A stretch of DNA of 64,000 nucleotides. Source: an uncultured Candidatus Saccharibacteria bacterium (lineage in GTDB: Bacteria > Patescibacteriota > Minisyncoccia > Phycocordibacterales > DATDWN01). The notes beneath the pieces were generated by a model. That model made no database searches. It was not told where the DNA came from and saw only the letters and a program-made list of their open reading frames with translations. The position numbers were made by a program, and so were the translations under genes. Numbering within the stretch: position 1 is the first letter of the stretch; every line of letters starts with the position of its first letter. Positions 2,884 through 43,594 of this stretch are shown here, piece after piece. The stretch covers positions 232,246 through 296,245 of the forward strand of contig CAYXWL010000001.1 in NCBI GenBank assembly GCA_964468795.1, read 5' to 3'.

Positions 2884-3948
2884 TTATTTTAACATCCTAT
2901 CCAGACCCTTTGCATTATTACTGTATTGATATGCACTCTCGATAGTAATCTCGCCATTTCTAACAAGCTCACTTAAGTACCTGTTTAGATCAATCATGCC
3001 TTCTCCTGAAGATGTTTCTATTATCGAATTAATCTCATGAACCCTGTTCTCTCTGATAAGGTTGGCCACTGCGCTGTTATTTATTAAAAGCTCTACAGCA
3101 GGAATAAGTCCGCCTGATATCCTAGGAATGAGCCTTTGTGACAAAATTCCAATCAAGCTTCCAGAAAGCTGAGTCCTTATCTGCTCCTGCTGGATAGCAT
3201 CAAAGGAATCAAGAATTCTTTCGATGCTTCTGGCTGCATCGTTGGTGTGCAGAGTTGAAAAGACCAAATGTCCTGTTTCCGCGGCAGTAACAGCTGTTGA
3301 CATATCTTCAGGTGAACGCATTTCTCCAATCATGATAACGTCAACGTCTTGCCTGAATGTTCCCCTGAGGCCAGCGTGGAAATCTGGCGTGTCCTGCAAG
3401 ACTTCTCGCTGATCAATGATTGATTTTTTTGATTCAAAAATATATTCGATCGGATCTTCAATTGTAATAATATGCTCGAATCTGTCTTGATTGATCCTTT
3501 CAATCATGGAGGCGAGAGTAGTGCTTTTGCCCTGTCCTGTAGGACCTACAACCAAAAAGAATCCCTGCTGTTTGGCTGTAAATGTTTCGATAATAGAAGG
3601 CAGGTTAAGCTCTGCAAAAGTCTTTATCTGCTTAGGAATGAGCCTCAAGGCTACGCTCATTTTCCCTACTTGAAAATATGCATTTCCTCTGAATCTCGTG
3701 CCGGTCTGATCATAAGCAAAATCCACCTCTTTCTTATCAATAAAAATTTCCTTTTTGGAATCGTCGAGCAAAACATCTAAAATGCCTTTCATGTCCTGCT
3801 TTGTCAGGACATGGCTGTTCGTCATAGGAATAAGTGTGCCGGATACTCGAATAATAGGCTGTCTGCCTTCAGACAAATGAAGGTCGGATGCATTTTCAGA
3901 AATCAAAATTGAAATCAGGCTTTCGATTGTTTTTTTGTAATCCGACAT
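2884..3948 (-). CDS. pilT: twitching-motility retraction ATPase
   Basis: 354 aa. Walker A GPTGQGKST, Asp box and His box (TLHTNDA) typical of PilT. Confidence 0.9.
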   Translation of the reverse strand: MSDYKKTIESLISILISENASDLHLSEGRQPIIRVSGTLIPMTNSHVLTKQDMKGILDVLLDDSKKEIFIDKKEVDFAYDQTGTRFRGNAYFQVGKMSVALRLIPKQIKTFAELNLPSIIETFTAKQQGFFLVVGPTGQGKSTTLASMIERINQDRFEHIITIEDPIEYIFESKKSIIDQREVLQDTPDFHAGLRGTFRQDVDVIMIGEMRSPEDMSTAVTAAETGHLVFSTLHTNDAARSIERILDSFDAIQQEQIRTQLSGSLIGILSQRLIPRISGGLIPAVELLINNSAVANLIRENRVHEINSIIETSSGEGMIDLNRYLSELVRNGEITIESAYQYSNNAKGLDRMLK

Positions 3949-18420: not shown

Positions 18421-18442
18421 GCACCACGATTTTTTGTGGTGC
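18421..18442 (-). terminator. hairpin terminator at the AT/GC composition boundary
   Basis: GCACCACgattttttGTGGTGC, followed by a T-run on the minus strand. Ends the minus-strand GC-rich operon. Confidence 0.55.
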
Positions 18443-18575
18443 TGGAAGTGGTGTGCAGTCCAGATCTTTAGCATTGCGAGCGTTGGCCACCTCCTTGGTT
18501 TTCAACTTAGCCGCTCGCGTAGCGATCTGGTTACGGCTTGTGCCGTCATCCGTTCCCACTTAGGGAACGACTCAA

Positions 18576-18695
18576 TTAGTCCTCTGGCCTCTGCACATGC
18601 CTGGACCGCGATATGTTGGGAACTCCATGCAACATGAGTGCGCACTCCGCCTTTGTTACAGCGCCCTCCGCTAGAGGGTAACGTGCCGTCTTCAT
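18576..18695 (-). CDS. candidate 39-aa ORF (last gene of the GC-rich operon)
   Basis: Own translation MKTARYPLAEGAVTKAECALMLHGVPNISRSRHVQRPED, placed just after IR copy a. Below the track cutoff. Confidence 0.25.
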   Translation of the reverse strand: MKTARYPLAEGAVTKAECALMLHGVPNISRSRHVQRPED

Positions 18696-18703
18696 GGTGG
18701 AGC

Positions 18704-18745
18704 TCCCATCAAAAGTTTCAAATTATTTTAAAATCTTTGATGGGA
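18704..18745 (-). repeat. IR family copy a: TCCCATCAAA - AT-rich spacer - TTTGATGGGA
   Basis: 10-bp perfect inverted arms read directly; gene orientation is minus. Confidence 0.7.
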
Positions 18746-18885
18746 GGGCGAACAAATTTCGTTGCTCACCCATTGCACTGCGGTCTCGCCCTGCCTTATC
18801 AGCAAACGAAGTGTCTAGCTTCGTTGCTCGCTTAAGTCATTTCTGACATCAGCGAATTCGCGCAGGATCCCCGCTCAAGTTTGTG

Positions 18886-19420: not shown

Positions 19421-19534
19421 AAAGAACTTTGGAACAATTTTGTTCCTTCAGAATACTTAACCTAGGTTAAACCCTCTGAAGGAAGTCCGAGGATATATGA
19501 CTTCCTCGGACGATACCGGGCTGACGCGCCGATA
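19421..19534 (-). promoter_or_regulatory. conserved structured leader, copy B (the homolog is at 26174..26288 on the plus strand)
   Basis: ~75 nt nearly identical to copy A: ATCGGCGCGTCAGCCCGgTATCGTCCGAGGAAGTCATATATCCTCGGACTTCCTTCAGAG. Covarying hairpins and GTTCTTT follow. Confidence 0.5.
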
Positions 19535-19544
19535 GACGTTATTG

Positions 19545-20093
19545 CTAGACTTCTCCCGAGAGATCGTTCGGATCTTCGTGGCCGTCCCACTCGGTGTCGA
19601 CATCTTCTCGCTTCCACTTGAGCCGATGGAGGACGTACTCGATCCTGCCCCTGGATTGTTTGGACAGCTTCCACTTCAACCAGCCGAACTCCTTCTCGAG
19701 CTGAGCAAGATTCTCGATCTGCCAACGCTTCAGGCAAGAAACGAGTCTTGGACTGAAGATGGATTTCGTCGAGATCTCCTCCCGAGGCCGATCTTTCAGC
19801 GAGTCGACGATGGCGTTGAAAGCCATCTCGAACTTCTGTTGCTCTACGGGCGGAGGCGGGAGTGGCTTCGGCGGTTTGCCGGCGTTCTTTCGTGCGGTGC
19901 GAACCTTACGAACTGCCTTGCGGGCAATCTGCATGATTCGCTCCTTCGTGACGGCAAACTCCTGGCCGATGTCGTTGTAGCTCATCCCTTGCGCGAGTAA
20001 GGTCAGGATTCTCTCCTCGCGGGGAGTCGTCCTCATGCGCTCGACTGGTGTGATCTCCGAAATGACAATGCCGAACAAAGTTTTTTTCTGCAA
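19545..20093 (-). CDS. sigma70 region-4-like HTH protein with an extra C-terminal domain
   Basis: TTG start after GGAG. TPREERILTLLAQGMSYNDIGQEFAVTKERIMQIARKAVRKV resembles sigma region 4. FSPRLVSCLKRWQIENLAQL weakly resembles an RpoA-CTD helix-hairpin-helix. Confidence 0.55.
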   Translation of the reverse strand: MQKKTLFGIVISEITPVERMRTTPREERILTLLAQGMSYNDIGQEFAVTKERIMQIARKAVRKVRTARKNAGKPPKPLPPPPVEQQKFEMAFNAIVDSLKDRPREEISTKSIFSPRLVSCLKRWQIENLAQLEKEFGWLKWKLSKQSRGRIEYVLHRLKWKREDVDTEWDGHEDPNDLSGEV

Positions 20094-20128
20094 TGTTTTT
20101 CTCCAAAGAACAAAGGGAAATTATTTTC

Positions 20129-20165
20129 CCGTCAAAACTCTGAAATAAATTCAAAACTTTGACGG
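20129..20165 (-). repeat. IR family copy f (variant arms CCGTCAAA / TTTGACGG)
   Basis: Preceded on the minus strand by hairpin GCCGAACttcgGTTCGGC. Followed by GGGAAAataaTTTCCC, GTTCTTT, GGAG and the start of 19545..20093. Confidence 0.6.
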
Positions 20166-20421
20166 AAGCCGAACCGAAGTTCGGCAAGTGTGATGGTAAA
20201 CTCGGAGTAGTTGTAGCCACTCTTTGCTCTTTAGGTAACTTGCGCCCTTAGCGAATACCCTGATTCCATCGCCAGACAGAATCACGGGAGAGTGGTTAAA
20301 GCTACAACTTCTAACCAACTACTCGCTCAATATGTATCACGGGCCATCACGCTCCACGACACGTCGCAACATTTTTCCTGCTCAAAAAATTCTACGATGT
20401 ACCGTGGAACTTTACAAAGAA

Positions 20422-20474
20422 CTTCTGTTTCGTCGTTTCCGACTCATCAGGTGAGACATACATCTCACGACAGG
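20422..20474 (-). ncRNA. hammerhead ribozyme, type III (HHR1)
   Basis: Minus strand: cCUGUC|GUGAGA-UGUAUG-UCUCAC-CUGAUGA-GUCG-GAAA-CGAC-GAAAC-AG. Full catalytic core, GUC cleavage site. Confidence 0.8.
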
Positions 20475-20558
20475 TGCCTTGGGTGCTAATCAAGACAAAT
20501 GATTTTTGGCCCTACTGCCCCTTGCGGGTACTCGGACCTTCTGTTGCCAAGCCGGTCA

Positions 20559-20939
20559 TTACTCCGGCTCCGTCTCCTCAAGCTGCTCTTCAGCAAGCTC
20601 GAGTTTTCTGCAGGCCTCTTCGAAGGCAACCAAGGCAGGAATGTTTCCCTTGCCCAGCTCTGGCAGCACTACGATTGGGAAGATTTCATCTCCCGTCTCG
20701 AGGTACAACCGAGAACCTTCTCCGTCGTGATGGGCGGCCCGCGAGAACTGGCGATGGCAGGAACGGCACTCGAAATAATCCAAGTCGTTCACTTCCACCG
20801 TGCAAGCTCCACAGGACGGACACCCATAACAAAGGAGTCGGCGTTGCGATTCTTCGTAGGCGAGCATTGGACACGAAGACAAGTGCTCGGACACTGACTC
20901 GTGGCAGTGTCGGCACTTTACCGTCAGTCGCAGTCTCAT
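20559..20939 (-). CDS. Cys-rich zinc-ribbon-like protein (126 aa)
   Basis: ATG at 20939, 5 nt after AGGAGG. CRHC..C..CYGCPSCGAC..CRSC motifs. Confidence 0.55.
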   Translation of the reverse strand: MRLRLTVKCRHCHESVSEHLSSCPMLAYEESQRRLLCYGCPSCGACTVEVNDLDYFECRSCHRQFSRAAHHDGEGSRLYLETGDEIFPIVVLPELGKGNIPALVAFEEACRKLELAEEQLEETEPE

Positions 20940-21315
20940 ACTCACCTCCTATTAAAGAACTTGAGACAAACCATTTGCCTCGTCATAATAATCAAAATCT
21001 TGATTTCTCTGACGAGACCCCGACTGATATTTTAGTCGGGATGTTGTGGTGGTGACTGTAAGCGATTGCAGTCACTTACAACCTTGAGATGTTCGGCGAA
21101 TTCCGAGCACCTCTTAGTGAATGTTTGGCTCCACCCGTATCCGAAATAGATACGGGAATCTGGCGCAAGCGCTGGGTGAGAATCTGCAACTCTCACGCTC
21201 TAAGCACCATTCACTCCCTCATGTATCATGGGCCACCACAGCTCCACGACACCTTGCACAACATTTTTTAGAAAAATTCTGTGCGAGATGTCGTGGATAG
21301 ATCAAAAGAACAGTT

Positions 21316-21366
21316 TCTGTTTCGTCCTTTCGGACTCTTCAGGGAGAATACACATTCTCCGACAGA
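21316..21366 (-). ncRNA. hammerhead ribozyme, type III (HHR2)
   Basis: Minus strand: CUGUC|GGAGAA-UGUGUA-UUCUCC-CUGAAGA-GUCC-GAAA-GGAC-GAAAC-AGA. Only the variable N7 differs from the other copies. Begins 6 nt after the stop codon of 21373..21651. Confidence 0.8.
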
Positions 21367-21372
21367 GCCGGA

Positions 21373-21651: not shown

Positions 21652-22032
21652 GATACCTCCTAGTTTTGAAAGAATAGTGGGTGTTTGCAGGATCCTCTCT
21701 GACTTTAATAGTCCGTGGCTTATCCACAGCTATTTCCTAGTGGTAACTTACCCACAAGGTCGTCTTTGATTAATCACCGCTAACATTGCACACCCGCGCA
21801 ACGCCAAGATGCCGGCAAGCATCTGGTGGATCGGAGCAAAGTTGCCTGGCCTCAGTTCTGTACGATTGCAGCCACTTTGGACTGCAATCTACCTCTCAGG
21901 CTGCCATGCCTTCGAAACACAGAAGTGTACCTTTGGCTCTGCTCCTAACGAAGATCCATCGGACTCCGGAATTTACCAAACTATTTGTCGAGCAAATTCC
22001 GAAATCCGTGAACCATTTTATTTTAAAGAACT

Positions 22033-22083
22033 TCTGTTTCGTCCTTTCGGACTCATCAGGCGAGACACTCATCTCACGACAGA
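22033..22083 (-). ncRNA. hammerhead ribozyme, type III (HHR3)
   Basis: Minus strand: UCUGUC|GUGAGA-UGAGUG-UCUCGC-CUGAUGA-GUCC-GAAA-GGAC-GAAAC-AGA. 5-bp open stem III. Confidence 0.85.
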
Positions 22084-22133
22084 CCAGGATGACGCTCTGG
22101 TAGACGTTTAGGAGATTCTGTTGCCGAGCTCTC

Positions 22134-22352: not shown

Positions 22353-22388
22353 GTCACTCTCCTCAAAGAACTCGGAACGAACCATTCG

Positions 22389-22460
22389 TCCCATCAAAGA
22401 AATCAAGCTTTATTATTTTCTTGAAAGTAAACTTTCAAGTTGTTAATTGCTTTGATGGGA
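22389..22460 (-). repeat. IR family copy b: TCCCATCAAAG - 50-nt AT-rich spacer - CTTTGATGGGA
   Basis: 11-bp perfect arms. The spacer contains hairpin CTTGAAAgtttacTTTCAAG. Confidence 0.7.
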
Positions 22461-22743: not shown

Positions 22744-23116
22744 GATCCTCCTCAGGATTGACTGGTTGTTAATGTAAAGAACATCGCGGGGGATGAGTTC
22801 GGGCTGGGGCCTAGTACACCGTGCAGCAACACGGGACTTCAGGCGAAAAGTGACCCCATATTGGTTTGCCTTACGCGAGATTCTTGCTCGCGCCTGGCTC
22901 CGCACACTTCCCTTGCTGAAGGGGAAGACTCCCTATGCGGTATTGAATGCCACCCTACACACCCCCACCTCAAAAGACTTGTATCTTCTGAAGCGGAGGA
23001 ATGTGTCCTCCATTTGTAAAGAAATGCACTTTGAAGTTAATTTTGATTGCGGGTCCGTGATATTTATCTGGACGGTTGCCATTCGCTAATAAAACTTAAC
23101 TTCAAGGTACACTGGT

Positions 23117-23145
23117 AGTATATACTAAACGTATATTTTTGTCAA
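23117..23145 (-). promoter_or_regulatory. sigma70-type promoter for the minus-strand GC-rich operon
   Basis: Minus strand TTGACA - 17 nt - TATACT. Confidence 0.55.
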
Positions 23146-23280: not shown

Positions 23281-23309
23281 TTGACAAATAAAATGAATGG
23301 GTATATACT
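23281..23309 (+). promoter_or_regulatory. sigma70-type promoter for the candidate ncRNA
   Basis: TTGACA (23281-86) - 17 nt - TATACT (23304-09). Confidence 0.6.
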
Positions 23310-23314
23310 TATAG

Positions 23315-23658
23315 GCAGACGAGTACCCAGGGTGTTCTTGGGGAAAGGAGGGTTCCATGCACGACTAGTGCGGGCTGGGGAACCGGGGGTTGTTAACCCC
23401 CGGTGTGGCCTCCAGTTTGGCTAGTCATAGATTGTGGAGGAAGCAAAAGTGGACGACTAGCACATAGGTGGTTCCAGTTCCATGCGTCCGACCACCAGAT
23501 AGTCAGAGGACGCGAGACAGATCATCTTCGTTCAGTTCAAGGTGGAAAATCCACCAGACAAAGAGAGAAGTGTGATTCCGTCAATCGTTCCCGGCGATTA
23601 GTCTTCGGGAACAACATGCCGTGGCGACAACTTACCGTCGCCACGGCATTTCTTATTT
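23315..23658 (+). ncRNA. candidate novel structured RNA (~340 nt) with its own promoter and intrinsic terminator
   Basis: GC-rich island between a consensus promoter and terminator ATGCCGTGGCGACaacttaccGTCGCCACGGCAT+TTTCTTATTT. Many helices, e.g. CCGGGGGUUguuAACCCCCGG and GGUGGAaaaUCCACC. Confidence 0.5.
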
Positions 23659-24393
23659 ATGATCAAAGATATATTTAATTAGGCTTTTGAGAGTGTCTGC
23701 AAACTCTTTGCTTTTTATTAAAATACCAGATGGTCTCTTTCCCAGAATAGATATTCTCACTTGGTCACCATAAACAGTAATATCGCTACTTAAAGGATAC
23801 TTCTCTGAATTTATTTTTAGCCTCTCTCCCATTTCATCTGATGGTTTATCTATATTTTTTGAAGTGTATATAGATCTAGATTTAATTCCTCTTGAAATCC
23901 TACGATCTTTTAGTCTACTTGTTTCTTTATCATCGAAAATATCCTTAACTAGATCTAAAGGATAAACTATATAAACAGGTTCATCAGGAAGTATTTTTAT
24001 AAAAGTATCATCATTTGAGCTAAGCACCCCTTCTTTACCATCAAAAAACTGAACCATTGGTTTTTCCCCTTGTTCTCTTTGGATACCTTTTAATTGTGGG
24101 ACGATAATATCTAGACCTTTTTTATTCTCTTCTAATAAGTGGATCTGTCTTTCTACGAACAAGCCAAGTTTTTCTGGAGGTTCAGCAATATAAAAAGTCT
24201 TTTTTCCAATATTTGATTCACTAACTAAACCCTTCTTCTGTAAAGATTCCAGGATCACGTATGCAGTAGGACGCTTTATCGTTGCTTTTTCGGCAATTTC
24301 AGTTACAAGAGCTTTATCAAAGGAAAGAAGAGCTAAATAAACTGCTGCTTCCTTATCACTAAGCCCAATATCTTTAAGGTATTTTTCAAACAT
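23653..24393 (-). CDS. TrmB-family transcriptional regulator
   Basis: N-terminal LGLSDKEAAVYLALLSFDKALVTEIAEKATIKRPTAYVILESLQKKGLV winged HTH. AT-rich like the host. Confidence 0.75.
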   Translation of the reverse strand: MFEKYLKDIGLSDKEAAVYLALLSFDKALVTEIAEKATIKRPTAYVILESLQKKGLVSESNIGKKTFYIAEPPEKLGLFVERQIHLLEENKKGLDIIVPQLKGIQREQGEKPMVQFFDGKEGVLSSNDDTFIKILPDEPVYIVYPLDLVKDIFDDKETSRLKDRRISRGIKSRSIYTSKNIDKPSDEMGERLKINSEKYPLSSDITVYGDQVRISILGKRPSGILIKSKEFADTLKSLIKYIFDHK

Positions 24394-25238: not shown

Positions 25239-25284
25239 AATATACCATTTTGTGCTTGACAAGTCAAGTAAAGTATGCTAGGAT
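25239..25284. promoter_or_regulatory. back-to-back divergent promoters with adjacent -35 boxes that together form a palindrome
   Basis: Plus: TTGACA(25256-61)-17-TAGGAT. Minus: TTGACT(25267-62)-17-TATATT. The -35 boxes lie in CTTGACaaGTCAAG. Confidence 0.5.
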
Positions 25285-25353
25285 AGAGGTAGTAATTCCT
25301 GTATGTATGTACAGGTCGCCCGAGAAGGGTAGGACAGAAAAAGGATGTGTCGT

Positions 25354-25662
25354 ATGACGCAGAATGCATATGATTTGAAGAAGATCGTGAACGGTCCGAG
25401 CAAGATGGACCTCATGCTGGCGATGTTCGACAGCAGCTTCCCGAATCACCGTTCAGTTGTCTTCAACTTTGAGAATGAGGGAGCGAGCAACTTCAAAGCT
25501 AGTGCTCCCTGTCACATCTCGATGGTTGAGAAGGAAGACGGTTCTGGCGAAAGCTTTAACTTCGAAGGAACTCTCTCCTACGACAACTTCCGGACAGGTA
25601 AGAGGGTGCGTGGTTGCTATAACACCATGCGCCGGACTGGCTTCTTCCACTTCGTGCAGTAG
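25354..25662 (+). CDS. hypothetical protein (102 aa)
   Basis: MTQNAYDLKKIVNG.. after AAAAAGGA. Confidence 0.45.
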   Translation: MTQNAYDLKKIVNGPSKMDLMLAMFDSSFPNHRSVVFNFENEGASNFKASAPCHISMVEKEDGSGESFNFEGTLSYDNFRTGKRVRGCYNTMRRTGFFHFVQ

Positions 25663-25690
25663 TTCTTCTGGGCGAGTTGTTAACTCGCCC

Positions 25691-25730
25691 TCCCATCAAA
25701 GTAATTAAATTTTTGATTTCTTTGATGGGA
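25691..25730 (+). repeat. IR family copy c
   Basis: GGGCGAGTTgttAACTCGCCC hairpin, then TCCCATCAAAG-18 nt-CTTTGATGGGA. Confidence 0.7.
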
Positions 25731-25782
25731 CAATTTGGTCCCGATTTGTTCATTTCAATTTTCAGTGCCCAAAGGAGGGCCC

Positions 25783-26154
25783 ATGATCAACGAACGTGGT
25801 GAGTTTATTCGCGAGACGGCAGCTCCTTCTACCAAGGAAGTCACCACGAAGAATTACATGGTCAACGTGGTCACTTCATCGCTCAAGGATATTCTCAGTG
25901 GACACAACCTGATCAGCGACATGAACCAGGTTATCCTTCTCCAGTTCGGACCTTGCTCGGAAGAGGAAGGTGACGCTCTGGCGGATCGGATCAACGCGTG
26001 GGTTCGTGGGGGTGAAGGTCGTGGTCCTGCTGAGGCATTCCGGATTCTGGGACTGCACCAGAAGACGGGAGATGTGTGGGCGTCTTGCGACCCGATCCCG
26101 ACGGCTGGCATCTCGGAACTTCTCCAAAAGTTCCAGGTGAAAACCACTGTTTGA
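25783..26154 (+). CDS. hypothetical protein (123 aa)
   Basis: MINERGEFIRE.. after AAAGGAGGGCCC. Confidence 0.5.
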   Translation: MINERGEFIRETAAPSTKEVTTKNYMVNVVTSSLKDILSGHNLISDMNQVILLQFGPCSEEEGDALADRINAWVRGGEGRGPAEAFRILGLHQKTGDVWASCDPIPTAGISELLQKFQVKTTV

Positions 26155-26173
26155 TCAACATAAAGATCCGTCC

Positions 26174-26288
26174 ATCGGCGCGTCAGCCCGATATCGTCCG
26201 AGGAAGTCATATTATCCTCGGACTTCCTTCAGAGAGTTCAACTTTGTTTGAAAATTCTGAAGGAACGAATAGTTCGTTCTGGTTCTTT
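26174..26288 (+). promoter_or_regulatory. conserved structured leader, copy A
   Basis: ATCGGCGCGTCAGCCCGATATCGTCCGAGGAAGTCATATTATCCTCGGACTTCCTTCAGAG ... TTCTGAAGGAACGAAtagTTCGTTCtgGTTCTTT, then GGGGAGG and ATG at 26302. Confidence 0.5.
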
Positions 26289-26301
26289 GGGGAGGTACAC
26301 C

Positions 26302-26520
26302 ATGTTCGTCAGCAATACCACGATTTTTCACTGCCCGATGTTCGGGTGCGGTCACGAAAACGAACGTTCGAACCGCACGAAGCCGGAAGACATCGTTTGC
26401 GAAGGATGTCACGCACCTTGGTGGCCGATGGAACTCGGTTTCATTGGAAATGATCCGAAAGAAAACATCGAGTTCGCACGGACTCATGATCGGAAAGGAA
26501 ATCTTCGTGAGCTGGCGTAA
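26302..26520 (+). CDS. zinc-ribbon-like small protein (72 aa)
   Basis: MFVSNTTIFHCPMFGCGHENE..CEGCHAPWW. Confidence 0.45.
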   Translation: MFVSNTTIFHCPMFGCGHENERSNRTKPEDIVCEGCHAPWWPMELGFIGNDPKENIEFARTHDRKGNLRELA

Positions 26521-26550
26521 TTCTTCTGGGCGAACGTAATTTGTTCGCCC

Positions 26551-39777: not shown

Positions 39778-39805
39778 AAAAATATTTTGCTTTTATTTAT
39801 AAATG

Positions 39806-39879
39806 TGCGCCTGCCTGGACTCGAACCAGGGACCCCAGAGGTATAAGCTCTGTGCTCTAACCAACTGAGCTACAGGCGC
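39806..39879 (-). tRNA. tRNA-Ile with anticodon UAU
   Basis: GCGCCUG-UA-GCUC..GAGC-A-CAGAG-CUUAUAC-CUCUG-..CCUGG-UUCGAGU-CCAGG-CAGGCGC-A. No encoded CCA. Confidence 0.8.
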
Positions 39880-43146: not shown

Positions 43147-43533
43147 GGGGATGACAGGTTTTGACATAAGGACGACATTGATTCGTGCAATGCGGAGCTT
43201 CGATAACTCCTGAAACTGTCGAAAACAATAAGTGTAAAAAACTTATCTAAGGGCATTGCGTCTCCTTTTGGAAACGCATTCGCTTTCTCACCAGCACTAG
43301 CATAAGCTAACTCGGTAAGACGGTCATTTCCATGATACCTCTATATGGAAAATGATTGATATAAAACGAGGTTAGGATAAAAGACTGTTCCGACTCTTGT
43401 CCGAAAAATAGGAACTCGATCACAATGTATTTTGTTTGTTCCAAGCATTGTGGTTTAACACACTAAACAATCTACGCACTGTAGAAACGCTTCAATTCTC
43501 TTTATGGACGTGGTTTCGATACCACCATCTCCA
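43147..43533 (+). ncRNA. ssrA: tmRNA (ssrA)
   Basis: 5' GGGGATGACAGGTTTTGAC. 3' tRNA-like GGACGTGGTTTCGATACCACCATCTCCAC. Tag frame ..GCATTCGCTTTCTCACCAGCACTAGCATAA (..AFAFSPALA*). Confidence 0.85.
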
Positions 43534-43594
43534 CAAAAAAACAGAACGCCATTTATGGCATTCATCAAAAAACTCCCGTTCGGGAGTTTTTTGA

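Follow-up and report, generated by a model that had tools for sequence, protein, structure and literature searches.

Clustered hammerhead ribozymes that process the polycistronic RNAs of prophages are documented in the available text of Perreault et al. 2011 (PMC3088659), and they share several features with the locus analyzed here. This locus lies in a stretch of 64,000 nucleotides (nt), hereafter the window, from an uncultured Candidatus Saccharibacteria bacterium (contig CAYXWL010000001.1, forward-strand positions 232,246 to 296,245), and it carries three type III hammerhead ribozymes (HHR1 to HHR3), two of which are followed by copies of a structured RNA that we refer to, by its helices, as the P1-P8 RNA. 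As in the prophage clusters described in that text, the hammerheads lie on the same strand, 0.7-0.9 kb apart among small genes, in a region that resembles a mobile element, and the expected role is likewise the processing of a polycistronic transcript. In contrast, the available text makes no mention of a large, conserved structured RNA joined to the ribozymes, and the hosts here are Patescibacteria. Clustered hammerheads in a mobile-element operon are a known setting; the attached RNA of ~280 nt is not in Rfam 15.

Two other systems are related to parts of this arrangement. RiboJ consists of the sTRSV hammerhead and a 23-nt hairpin downstream of it, which shields a downstream structured RNA (PMC8794103). 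It offers a functional analogy for hairpin P1, since in both cases a hairpin comes right after a hammerhead and provides local structure upstream of a structured RNA or ribosome binding site. However, RiboJ is a synthetic construct whose hairpin is short and isolated, whereas P1 has 24-25 bp and an invariant 3' arm and is joined to the long-range helix of a 280-nt fold. Retrozymes and viroid-like RNAs are non-coding structured RNAs between type III hammerheads (reviewed in PMC6765202). Two related loci (L047 and L064) share with them a structured RNA of ~300 nt, free of open reading frames (ORFs), between two type III hammerheads, whose cleavage would leave 5'-OH and 2',3'-cyclic phosphate ends. 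Unlike retrozymes, these RNAs are bacterial, encoded in DNA inside an operon, without repeats of the long terminal repeat type, and known from DNA alone; the RNA of the window is followed by an ORF and not by a second hammerhead. In addition, neighbouring hammerheads do not always have compatible stems III (the downstream hammerhead of L047 has GUGU/ACAC).

Large structured RNAs such as ROOL, GOLLD, HEARO, OLE and raiA resemble the P1-P8 RNA in their complex multi-helix folds, long-range and (predicted for the P1-P8 RNA) loop-loop contacts and mobile-element or phage-like contexts, but the P1-P8 RNA is smaller (~280 nt), is tied to hammerheads, occurs as tandem paralogous copies and has no Rfam match. 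In T7-type early operons, RNase III hairpins lie between cistrons. The common feature is a long imperfect duplex between the cistrons of a phage-like operon; P1 instead adjoins a self-cleaving ribozyme that already provides processing. We found no paper linking hammerheads with Patescibacteria, the candidate phyla radiation, Saccharibacteria or Parcubacteria. The roles of hammerheads in bacteria and phages are largely open, and here a conserved ~280-nt RNA supported by covariation is physically coupled to them. Related loci form whole arrays of hammerhead-bounded cassettes, some coding and some RNA only, in the huge and poorly understood Patescibacteria lineage.

Structure and conservation of the P1-P8 RNA

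The initial annotation of the window had described a conserved module of ~80 nt immediately 3' of HHR1 and HHR2, made of a ~10-bp outer stem and a single-stranded tail. Our results showed that this module is the front end, the 5' third, of a multi-helix RNA of ~280 nt, which is present as two diverged paralogous copies on the minus strand, B (21297-21019) and C (20410-20168). Each copy begins 15-20 nt past a type III hammerhead and a GUUCUUU box. The features of both copies, including the Shine-Dalgarno sequence (SD) and the folds of minimum free energy (MFE), are as follows.

22031-22085, minus strand: HHR3, type III hammerhead (RF00008, 41.5 bits), followed by the A-type RNA at 22030-21780
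21314-21368, minus strand: HHR2, type III hammerhead (RF00008, 44.4 bits, E 2.1e-7, full model 1-54), directly upstream of copy B
21305-21311, minus strand: GUUCUUU box of copy B, between HHR2 and P1
21243-21297, minus strand: P1 of copy B, a 24-bp hairpin (5' arm 21297-21272, 3' arm 21268-21243)
21233-21240, minus strand: 5' strand of P2 of copy B, UGUGGUGG, paired with 21052-21045 in the MFE and centroid folds; part of the tail of the initial annotation
21216-21232, minus strand: junction (J) of copy B, CCCAUGAUACAU.., conserved and unpaired
21116-21215, minus strand: P3, P4 and P5 of copy B, with P3 formed by 21215-21208 and 21123-21116
21207-21169 and 21156-21134, minus strand: P4 (loop UUGCAG, 21189-21184) and P5 of copy B, enclosed by P3
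21086-21113, minus strand: P6 of copy B, a hairpin of variable length
21054-21083, minus strand: P7 hairpin of copy B, its loop CUGCAA (21071-21066) complementary to the P4 loop
21045-21052, minus strand: 3' strand of P2 of copy B, CCACCACA
21019-21040, minus strand: P8 of copy B, a G+C-rich hairpin at the end of the modelled RNA
20945-21016, minus strand: pre-ORF module of copy B, with P9 (21016-20979), P10 (20981-20963), a second GUUCUUU and an SD
20422-20476, minus strand: HHR1, type III hammerhead (RF00008, 42.3 bits, E 8.1e-7), directly upstream of copy C
20416-20422, minus strand: GUUCUUU box of copy C, the counterpart between HHR1 and P1
20351-20410, minus strand: P1 of copy C, a 25-bp hairpin (5' arm 20410-20384, 3' arm 20377-20351)
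20344-20350, minus strand: 5' strand of P2 of copy C, GUGAUGG (partner CCAUCAC, 20196-20190)
20328-20343, minus strand: junction J of copy C, CCCGUGAUACAU..
20168-20327, minus strand: remainder of copy C, with P3 formed by 20327-20320 and 20257-20250
20317-20293, 20287-20258 and 20248-20233, minus strand: P4 (loop UUGUAG, 20307-20302), P5 and P6 of copy C
20222-20205, 20196-20190 and 20185-20168, minus strand: P7 (loop CUACAA, 20216-20211), 3' strand of P2 and P8 of copy C
20091-20165, minus strand: pre-ORF module of copy C, with P9, P10 and GUUCUUU, then a TTG start

The 126-aa zinc-ribbon ORF begins at 20939, after the pre-ORF module of copy B, and a 182-aa ORF with similarity to sigma-70 region 4 and a TTG start follows directly after that of copy C.

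The placement of the module in the initial annotation was correct. Its quoted sequences lie on the minus strand at 21298-21221 and 20410-20332 (the strings begin 1-2 nt inside these coordinates), both copies follow a type III RF00008 hammerhead, and the module is not part of the hammerhead, as the full-length matches stop at 21314 and 20422 and the module begins 15-20 nt further 3'. A degenerate pattern of 29-30 nt, covering the 3' arm of P1 and the tail, matched exactly two sites in the window, with 0 matches in 100 shuffles. The three hammerheads are full-model RF00008 matches (41.5-44.4 bits, E 2e-7 to 1.4e-6); a different hairpin comes after HHR3, as had been noted, and the GUUCUUU box recurs after every hammerhead and just upstream of each SD. 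The extent and folding of the module had to be revised. The P1 hairpin has 24-25 bp rather than ~10, homology and common structure of the two copies reach over ~250-290 nt rather than ~80, and GUGRUGG in the supposedly single-stranded tail is the 5' strand of the long-range helix P2, leaving only CCCRUGAUAC of the tail unpaired.

Homology between copies B and C extended over ~265 nt in an nhmmer search (E 4e-7) and over ~250-290 nt overall, as judged from an alignment of three intergenic regions together with nhmmer. Separate MFE folds of B, C and two homologues, L054 and L060, agreed on P1, P2, P3 (with P4 and P5 inside), P6, P7 and P8, and the folding z-scores were -10.3 for B and -4.25 for C. 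P1 contains a 26-nt inverted repeat, and its 3' arm, GUGUCGUGGA, is unchanged in all 4 close homologues. After a linker of 0-3 nt it is followed by P2, in which GUGGUGG of copy B is paired with CCACCAC, and GUGAUGG of copy C with CCAUCAC, ~190 nt downstream, a G:C pair of one copy being replaced by A:U in the other. P2 closes a multi-helix junction of P3 (enclosing P4 and P5), P6 and P7, and P8 lies after P2. GGCCCRUGAUAC is invariant in B, L054, L060 and C, and its CCCRUGAUAC segment belongs, with UUAG and AAGRGG, to the invariant unpaired nucleotides of the junction. The long P1 followed by a P2-closed junction was supported by the separate MFE folds, the alignment to a covariance model and the pair counts. 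An alternative inner pairing of P3, proposed by RNAalifold from three sequences, was rejected because it fails in copy C, whereas AGUGAAUG/CAUUCACU holds there.

Six nucleotides in the apical loop of P4 are complementary to six in that of P7. The match UUGCAG/CUGCAA is perfect in B, L054 and L060. Copy C carries a joint change of the two loops (UUGUAG/CUACAA), and no such match is evident in the more distant homologue L030. This complementarity and its covariation predict a kissing interaction between the two loops. Furthermore, the copy C hairpin has a folding energy of -28.1 kcal/mol on the minus strand vs -17.8 kcal/mol on the plus strand, where it is weaker because G.U pairs turn into C.A, and this strand bias indicates an RNA read from the minus strand.

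Homologues came from contigs that encode relatives of the neighbouring small proteins (the 126-aa ORF and a 92-aa ORF), among them L054 and L060, which are Logan assemblies. Further homologues of the element therefore exist, the lack of which would have counted against the initial annotation: L054:378-661 is 95% identical to copy B, and L060:1029-1306 falls between B and C. No P1-P8 RNA accompanied the zinc-ribbon ORF relatives in L048-L053 and L055 or the sigma-like ORF relatives in L056-L058, module-specific DNA patterns gave 0 matches in viral contigs and JGI metagenomes, and the whole intergenic region had no blastn match among 50,697 phage records. The pattern and blastn results indicate that the strict P1-P8 family is rare.

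A covariance model trained on B, L054 and L060 only, with copy C held out, recovered copy C at full length (20409-20168, 70.7 bits, E 1.3e-18). The same model matched a Patescibacteria genome at L030:4051-3768 (22.5 bits, E 2e-4), immediately downstream of a hammerhead, and the same RNA in a metagenome sequence, L073 (22.5 bits, E 3.1e-5). The position 15-20 nt 3' of a hammerhead and GUUCUUU holds for B, C, L054, L060 and L030/L073. Compared with B, 66 of 72 aligned pairs are retained in copy C and 46 of 48 in L030, of which 16 and 26, respectively, are altered on both sides; the P2 of L030 has a wholly different sequence, GUGUGCAG/CUGCACA. When the 3' partners were moved by 1-3 columns as a control, 35-50% of the cells paired.

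Formal covariation was counted in alignment A5, which holds the four close sequences (B, L054, L060 and C). In A5, 94.2% of cells were paired, and 22 pairs were changed on both sides, compared with 9.2 +/- 2.2 in shuffles (0 of 500 reached 22) and 2-5 when slid. Helix P3 was 100% paired, with 3 of its 8 pairs altered on both sides. The pairing-preserving changes that the initial annotation had seen in the outer stem were confirmed (A-U to G.U, C-G to U.G and U.G to C-G, with an invariant 3' arm). However, the strongest covariation does not fall in that stem; it falls in P2, P3, P7, P8 and the predicted kissing loop, beyond the ~80 nt first described. B and L054 differ by indels of 1-2 nt, and indels are far more numerous among B, the sequence labelled D, and C; such indels among close relatives rule out a conserved reading frame.

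The earlier statement that the module belongs to no known RNA family was upheld by Rfam 15 (4227 models), in which the module had no match at a cut-off of E <= 10, bar one to mir-210 on the opposite strand (E 7.3), which is at chance level. Between 18000 and 25000 the three hammerheads were the only credible Rfam matches, and none was credible over 21298-21018 or 20410-20168. At the gathering score, the whole window gave only a transfer-messenger RNA (tmRNA) and two tRNAs.

Proposed role and competing explanations

A search for the hammerhead followed by GTTCTTT found 43 genome loci, nearly all in Patescibacteria and many with several hammerheads on the same strand, and none in 2.9 million IMG/VR viral contigs. 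A hairpin of at least 14 bp lay within 45 nt downstream in 46 of 91 distinct hammerhead contexts (39 of 84 before the last 15 loci were added), and 5 of 35 units between hammerheads had no ORF of at least 40 aa. In L047 (two copies) and L064, the order is hammerhead, P1, a multi-helix domain closed by P2, and a further hammerhead, and the unit contains no ORF. A covariance search of L047 with filters off gave marginal scores of 9-15 bits, and one of L064 with default filters gave no match.

The P1-P8 RNA is most likely a ribozyme-delimited structured RNA cassette in a mobile-element-like island. To this explanation as a whole, that is, the P1-P8 anatomy together with a cassette that acts on the processed transcripts of the element, we assign a probability of about 0.6. 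The hammerheads would cut the transcript of the island operon, and the P1-P8 RNA would become the 5' body of a processed transcript, which would run from a 5'-OH through the hammerhead, GUUCUUU, P1 to P8, P9/P10 and the SD to the ORF. By analogy with RiboJ, P1 may fold locally and fast and so wall the ribozyme off from the downstream fold. The compact P2-closed domain, which the loop-loop contact would lock, is probably an RNA cassette in its own right. Since the analogous P1-P2 domains of other loci are bounded by hammerheads and contain no ORF, these could be released as free RNAs of ~300 nt; in the window, the RNA would stay fused to the next cistron through the P9/P10-GUUCUUU-SD module. 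Our best guess for its role is control over the processed transcripts of the element, at the level of stability, processing or translation. If it were a stand-alone product, it would represent a new class of non-coding RNA (ncRNA) with a defined way of production, and if a 5' domain, a natural counterpart of the synthetic hammerhead-plus-hairpin insulator.

Several points weigh against this proposal. All three hammerheads score slightly under the Rfam gathering score of 48.5 bits, and their self-cleavage is predicted from sequence, with the sites of HHR2 and HHR1 placed after GUC at about 21359 and 20467. The probability of the native hammerhead fold was ~0.01 with or without P1, the two-dimensional energy model giving ~1% in every context. 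The strict family consists of five sequences from about four lineages and the pair counts come from alignments fitted to the structure of the model, so that the covariation is strong but below R-scape grade. The domains of L047 and L064 appear to be architectural analogues and are not detectable homologues, and a function read from them would be an extrapolation. Finally, no hammerhead lies between the RNA and the next ORF in the window, L030 or L060, and a pure role in cis as a 5' untranslated region would thus be equally compatible.

Among the alternatives, the one that survives best holds that P1 is chiefly an RNase III processing site, which removes the hammerhead remnant and matures the 5' end, the rest of the RNA being separate. 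Intercistronic processing by RNase III is established for phage T7, P1 is a nearly regular duplex of 24-25 bp, and near-perfect hairpins of 20-30 bp follow many hammerheads, whatever comes next. However, the invariant 3' arm of P1 runs straight into P2, suggesting that P1 belongs to the larger fold, and we consider RNase III processing unlikely as its chief function. The internal mismatches and A/U-rich tip of P1 are diagnostic neither for nor against the enzyme, and an RNase III site in P1 is plausible and compatible with the cassette proposal.

Rather less likely, in our view, is that the P1-P2 domains are autonomous RNAs excised by flanking hammerheads or twisters, and possibly circular, or that the junction itself is catalytic. 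P2 joins the 5' and 3' ends of the unit, so an excised RNA could be ligated into a circle, and new ribozyme classes have previously been found beside hammerheads and twisters. Such RNAs would be a bacterial counterpart of retrozyme and viroid-like circular RNAs and a new class of DNA-encoded cassettes.

A sensor resembling a riboswitch, in which a ligand or protein bound at the P2-closed junction would govern P9/P10 and GUUCUUU further downstream and thereby the next ORF, is more doubtful again. The multi-way junction with its invariant unpaired nucleotides would suit such a sensor. P10 with GUUCUUU was called terminator-like just upstream of four SDs (22373-22393, 20963-20981, 20115-20130 and 19431-19446, minus strand), P9 and P10 compete for the same GGGA, and the P9/P10 and GUUCUUU module looks like an antiterminator/terminator or translational switch before each cistron. 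However, this pre-ORF module precedes most ORFs in both GC-rich islands of the window, including ORFs with no P1-P8 RNA upstream, such as those of the second island at 25.25-27.8 kb. In addition, the paralogues B and C precede unrelated ORFs, and Rfam gave no riboswitch match.

The module as first described, an autonomous unit of ~80 nt whose hairpin and single-stranded tail act locally on the hammerhead, for example through modulation of cleavage by the tail, we regard as improbable. It lies directly beside the ribozyme in both copies, long hairpins after hammerheads are common in related loci, and the AUACAU of segment J is complementary over 6 nt to hammerhead loop I (AUGUAU in HHR1, GUGUAU in HHR2). 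This complementarity shows no covariation, however, and is weaker in L060 and L030, and P1 had no effect on the hammerhead fold in a thermodynamic test. Moreover, the GUGRUGG of the tail is paired in P2, with covariation, and homology and structure reach ~280 nt.

Equally improbable is a translational leader, in which an SD-like GGAG, at the foot of the 3' arm of P1, is hidden by this hairpin and P2 is remodelled through translation of a mini-ORF whose start codon lies 4-5 nt further on (AUG in copy C, GUG in copy B and in L060); leader-peptide attenuation or a vestigial translation start would be variants of it. B, C, L054, L060 and L030 all carry an AUG or GUG after GGAG, the frame GCC-CRU-GAU-ACA-stop is common to B, C and L054, and elsewhere, e.g. 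in L016, L018, L037 and L065, a true start codon lies in the 3' arm of the hairpin. However, the stop codon is not conserved (L060 is open for >100 codons), there is no conserved peptide, and an SD-to-start spacing of 4-5 nt is short. The G/A at the start-codon position also covaries with its P2 partner, C/U, as the helix predicts.

Finally, a DNA-level inverted repeat (a recombination site, protein-binding palindrome or terminator) or neutral remnants of duplication can be dismissed as very improbable: despite the 26-nt inverted repeat and the mosaic island with cassette junctions at repeated hammerhead/GUUCUUU sequences, copy C folds much better as minus-strand RNA (above), P1 has no U-tract after it, GTTCTTT is unlike the integron core GTTRRRY, and copies B and C share about half of their aligned positions yet keep 92% of pairs with 16 double changes, which neutral decay would not be expected to produce.

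We also rejected or set aside a number of specific readings. An intrinsic terminator was ruled out, as the sequence after P1, GC(U)GUGRUGGCCC, lacks a U run and the terminator scan does not list P1. For a leader peptide or upstream-ORF attenuator, the stop is lost in L060, indels shift the frames and the SD spacing is 4-5 nt. An integron attC site was rejected on two grounds: the junction box GTTCTTT has pyrimidines where the GTTRRRY core needs RRR, and strand-specific G.U pairs and long-range covariation indicate RNA; the search for an integron integrase was made by Pfam scans. T-box and other riboswitches had no Rfam match, the resemblance of GGUGG in P2 to a T-box sequence being superficial. 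A promoter inside P1 of copy C (TTGTAA-17-TAGAAT) is absent from B and L060. A thermodynamic insulating effect of P1 on the hammerhead left no signal in an equilibrium-folding test, which was uninformative on this point. Finally, the 3' arm of P1 (GUGUC/GUGGAG) looks like a hammerhead substrate strand, and a similarly spaced part of the tail recalls a degenerate CUGAUGA box; this likeness was set aside because a 7-nt match between the RNA and the hammerhead was estimated as chance expectation.

The GC-rich island and related loci

The P1-P8 RNAs sit in a GC-rich island at 18.4-23.1 kb (minus strand), with ~51% G+C vs ~38% in the surrounding genome. The following features delimit the island or lie near it.

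23145-23117, minus strand: strong promoter of the island operon, from the promoter scan
18443-18420, minus strand: terminator of the island operon, from the terminator scan
29426-30757, plus strand: large serine recombinase gene (Resolvase, Recombinase and Zn_ribbon_recom), 1.6 kb past the second island

The sum of six small ORFs accounts for ~45% of the island. Four of the six have no Pfam match and the others match a weak zinc-finger and sigma-70 region 4; the sigma-like ORF is the only one in the island with PHROG matches. The closest DNA relatives of the island are contigs of Minisyncoccia and Saccharibacteria genomes. A gene for a TrmB-family regulator lies just upstream, as in L009 and L038, and is adjacent yet on the opposite strand in L055. 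The island is a mosaic, its cassette junctions falling at repeated hammerhead/GUUCUUU sequences. The serine recombinase near the second island points to an integrated mobile element that takes in all of the 18-31 kb region.

The second GC-rich island (25250-27790, plus strand) carries small orphan ORFs on the opposite strand, without hammerheads. Each ORF has a module of a GC hairpin, P9 (UCCCAUCAAAG...CUUUGAUGGGA), P10 (GGGAC..GUCCC), GUUCUUU and an SD, and P10 overlaps the 3' end of P9. A further GC-rich stretch lies at 31.0-32.0 kb, beyond the serine recombinase.

Other parts of the first island also appear structured. The A-type RNA after HHR3 (21780-22030, minus strand) has a P1 of ~35 bp with AUGG in its 3' base, and a long-range helix, GGAGCA/UGCUCC, encloses several hairpins. 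Its homologues (L059:573-822, L060:298-549 and L038:1574-1360) show compensatory changes in P1, and UUGCAG/CUGCAA is a local hairpin in this RNA, not a kissing loop. The operon leader (22744-23117, minus strand), GC-rich and ~370 nt long, precedes the first small ORF and has 71-76% identity in L038 and L009; shorter pieces of the promoter region recur in L010, L014, L021, L040 and L046. At the 3' end of the operon (18430-18885, minus strand), ~450 nt are apparently non-coding and structured, including a P9-type hairpin, and by eye, unaligned, this stretch resembles L060:1440-1660.

A small hairpin motif, GGCAACAGAA, occurs just after the stop codons of ORFs that precede hammerheads (22105-22133 and 20530-20558, minus strand). 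It is also present at L038:1660-1685 (minus strand) and at L053:1320-1345, where no hammerhead follows. The motif repeats the ACAGAA of the 3' strand of hammerhead stem III and could thus compete for the UCUGU strand.

Divergent from the island operon, we noted a candidate stand-alone ncRNA of ~340 nt (23312-23660, plus strand), served by a promoter of its own at 23281-23309, which agrees with the consensus at 11 of 12 positions, and by its own terminator at 23616-23649. Its folding z-score is -7.2, Rfam has no match for it, and its conservation extends to L009 and, at 73% over 451 nt, to L038. Outside these islands, the window contains a tRNA-Ile (anticodon UAU, 39805-39879, minus strand) and a tmRNA (43147-43534, plus strand) with a tag ending in ...AFSPALA. 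The tRNA-Ile(UAU), like the low G+C, is consistent with a host of the Patescibacteria type.

Among the related loci, a Saccharibacteria contig (L047:1-4500, plus strand) contains eight type III hammerheads in 4.4 kb, located between small ORFs and two ORF-less structured RNAs. A candidate twister-P1 also lies on this contig, at 3078-3150; its score of 54.8 bits (E 1e-9) does not reach the gathering score, 67.2. In L053, terminal inverted repeats of ~95 nt (100-195 and 1560-1655) flank a related small-ORF island, and islands of this type adjoin different housekeeping genes in sister assemblies (L048-L052). The inverted repeats and the varying neighbours suggest that the cassettes are mobile. 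Finally, in L016, L017, L018, L024, L037 and L065, a post-hammerhead hairpin UUCAU(A)G...C(U)AUGAA holds the start codon of the next ORF in its 3' arm, so that sequestration of start codons by such hairpins looks like a recurrent arrangement; some of these hairpins carry an SD-like sequence in the apical region, which is clear in L018.

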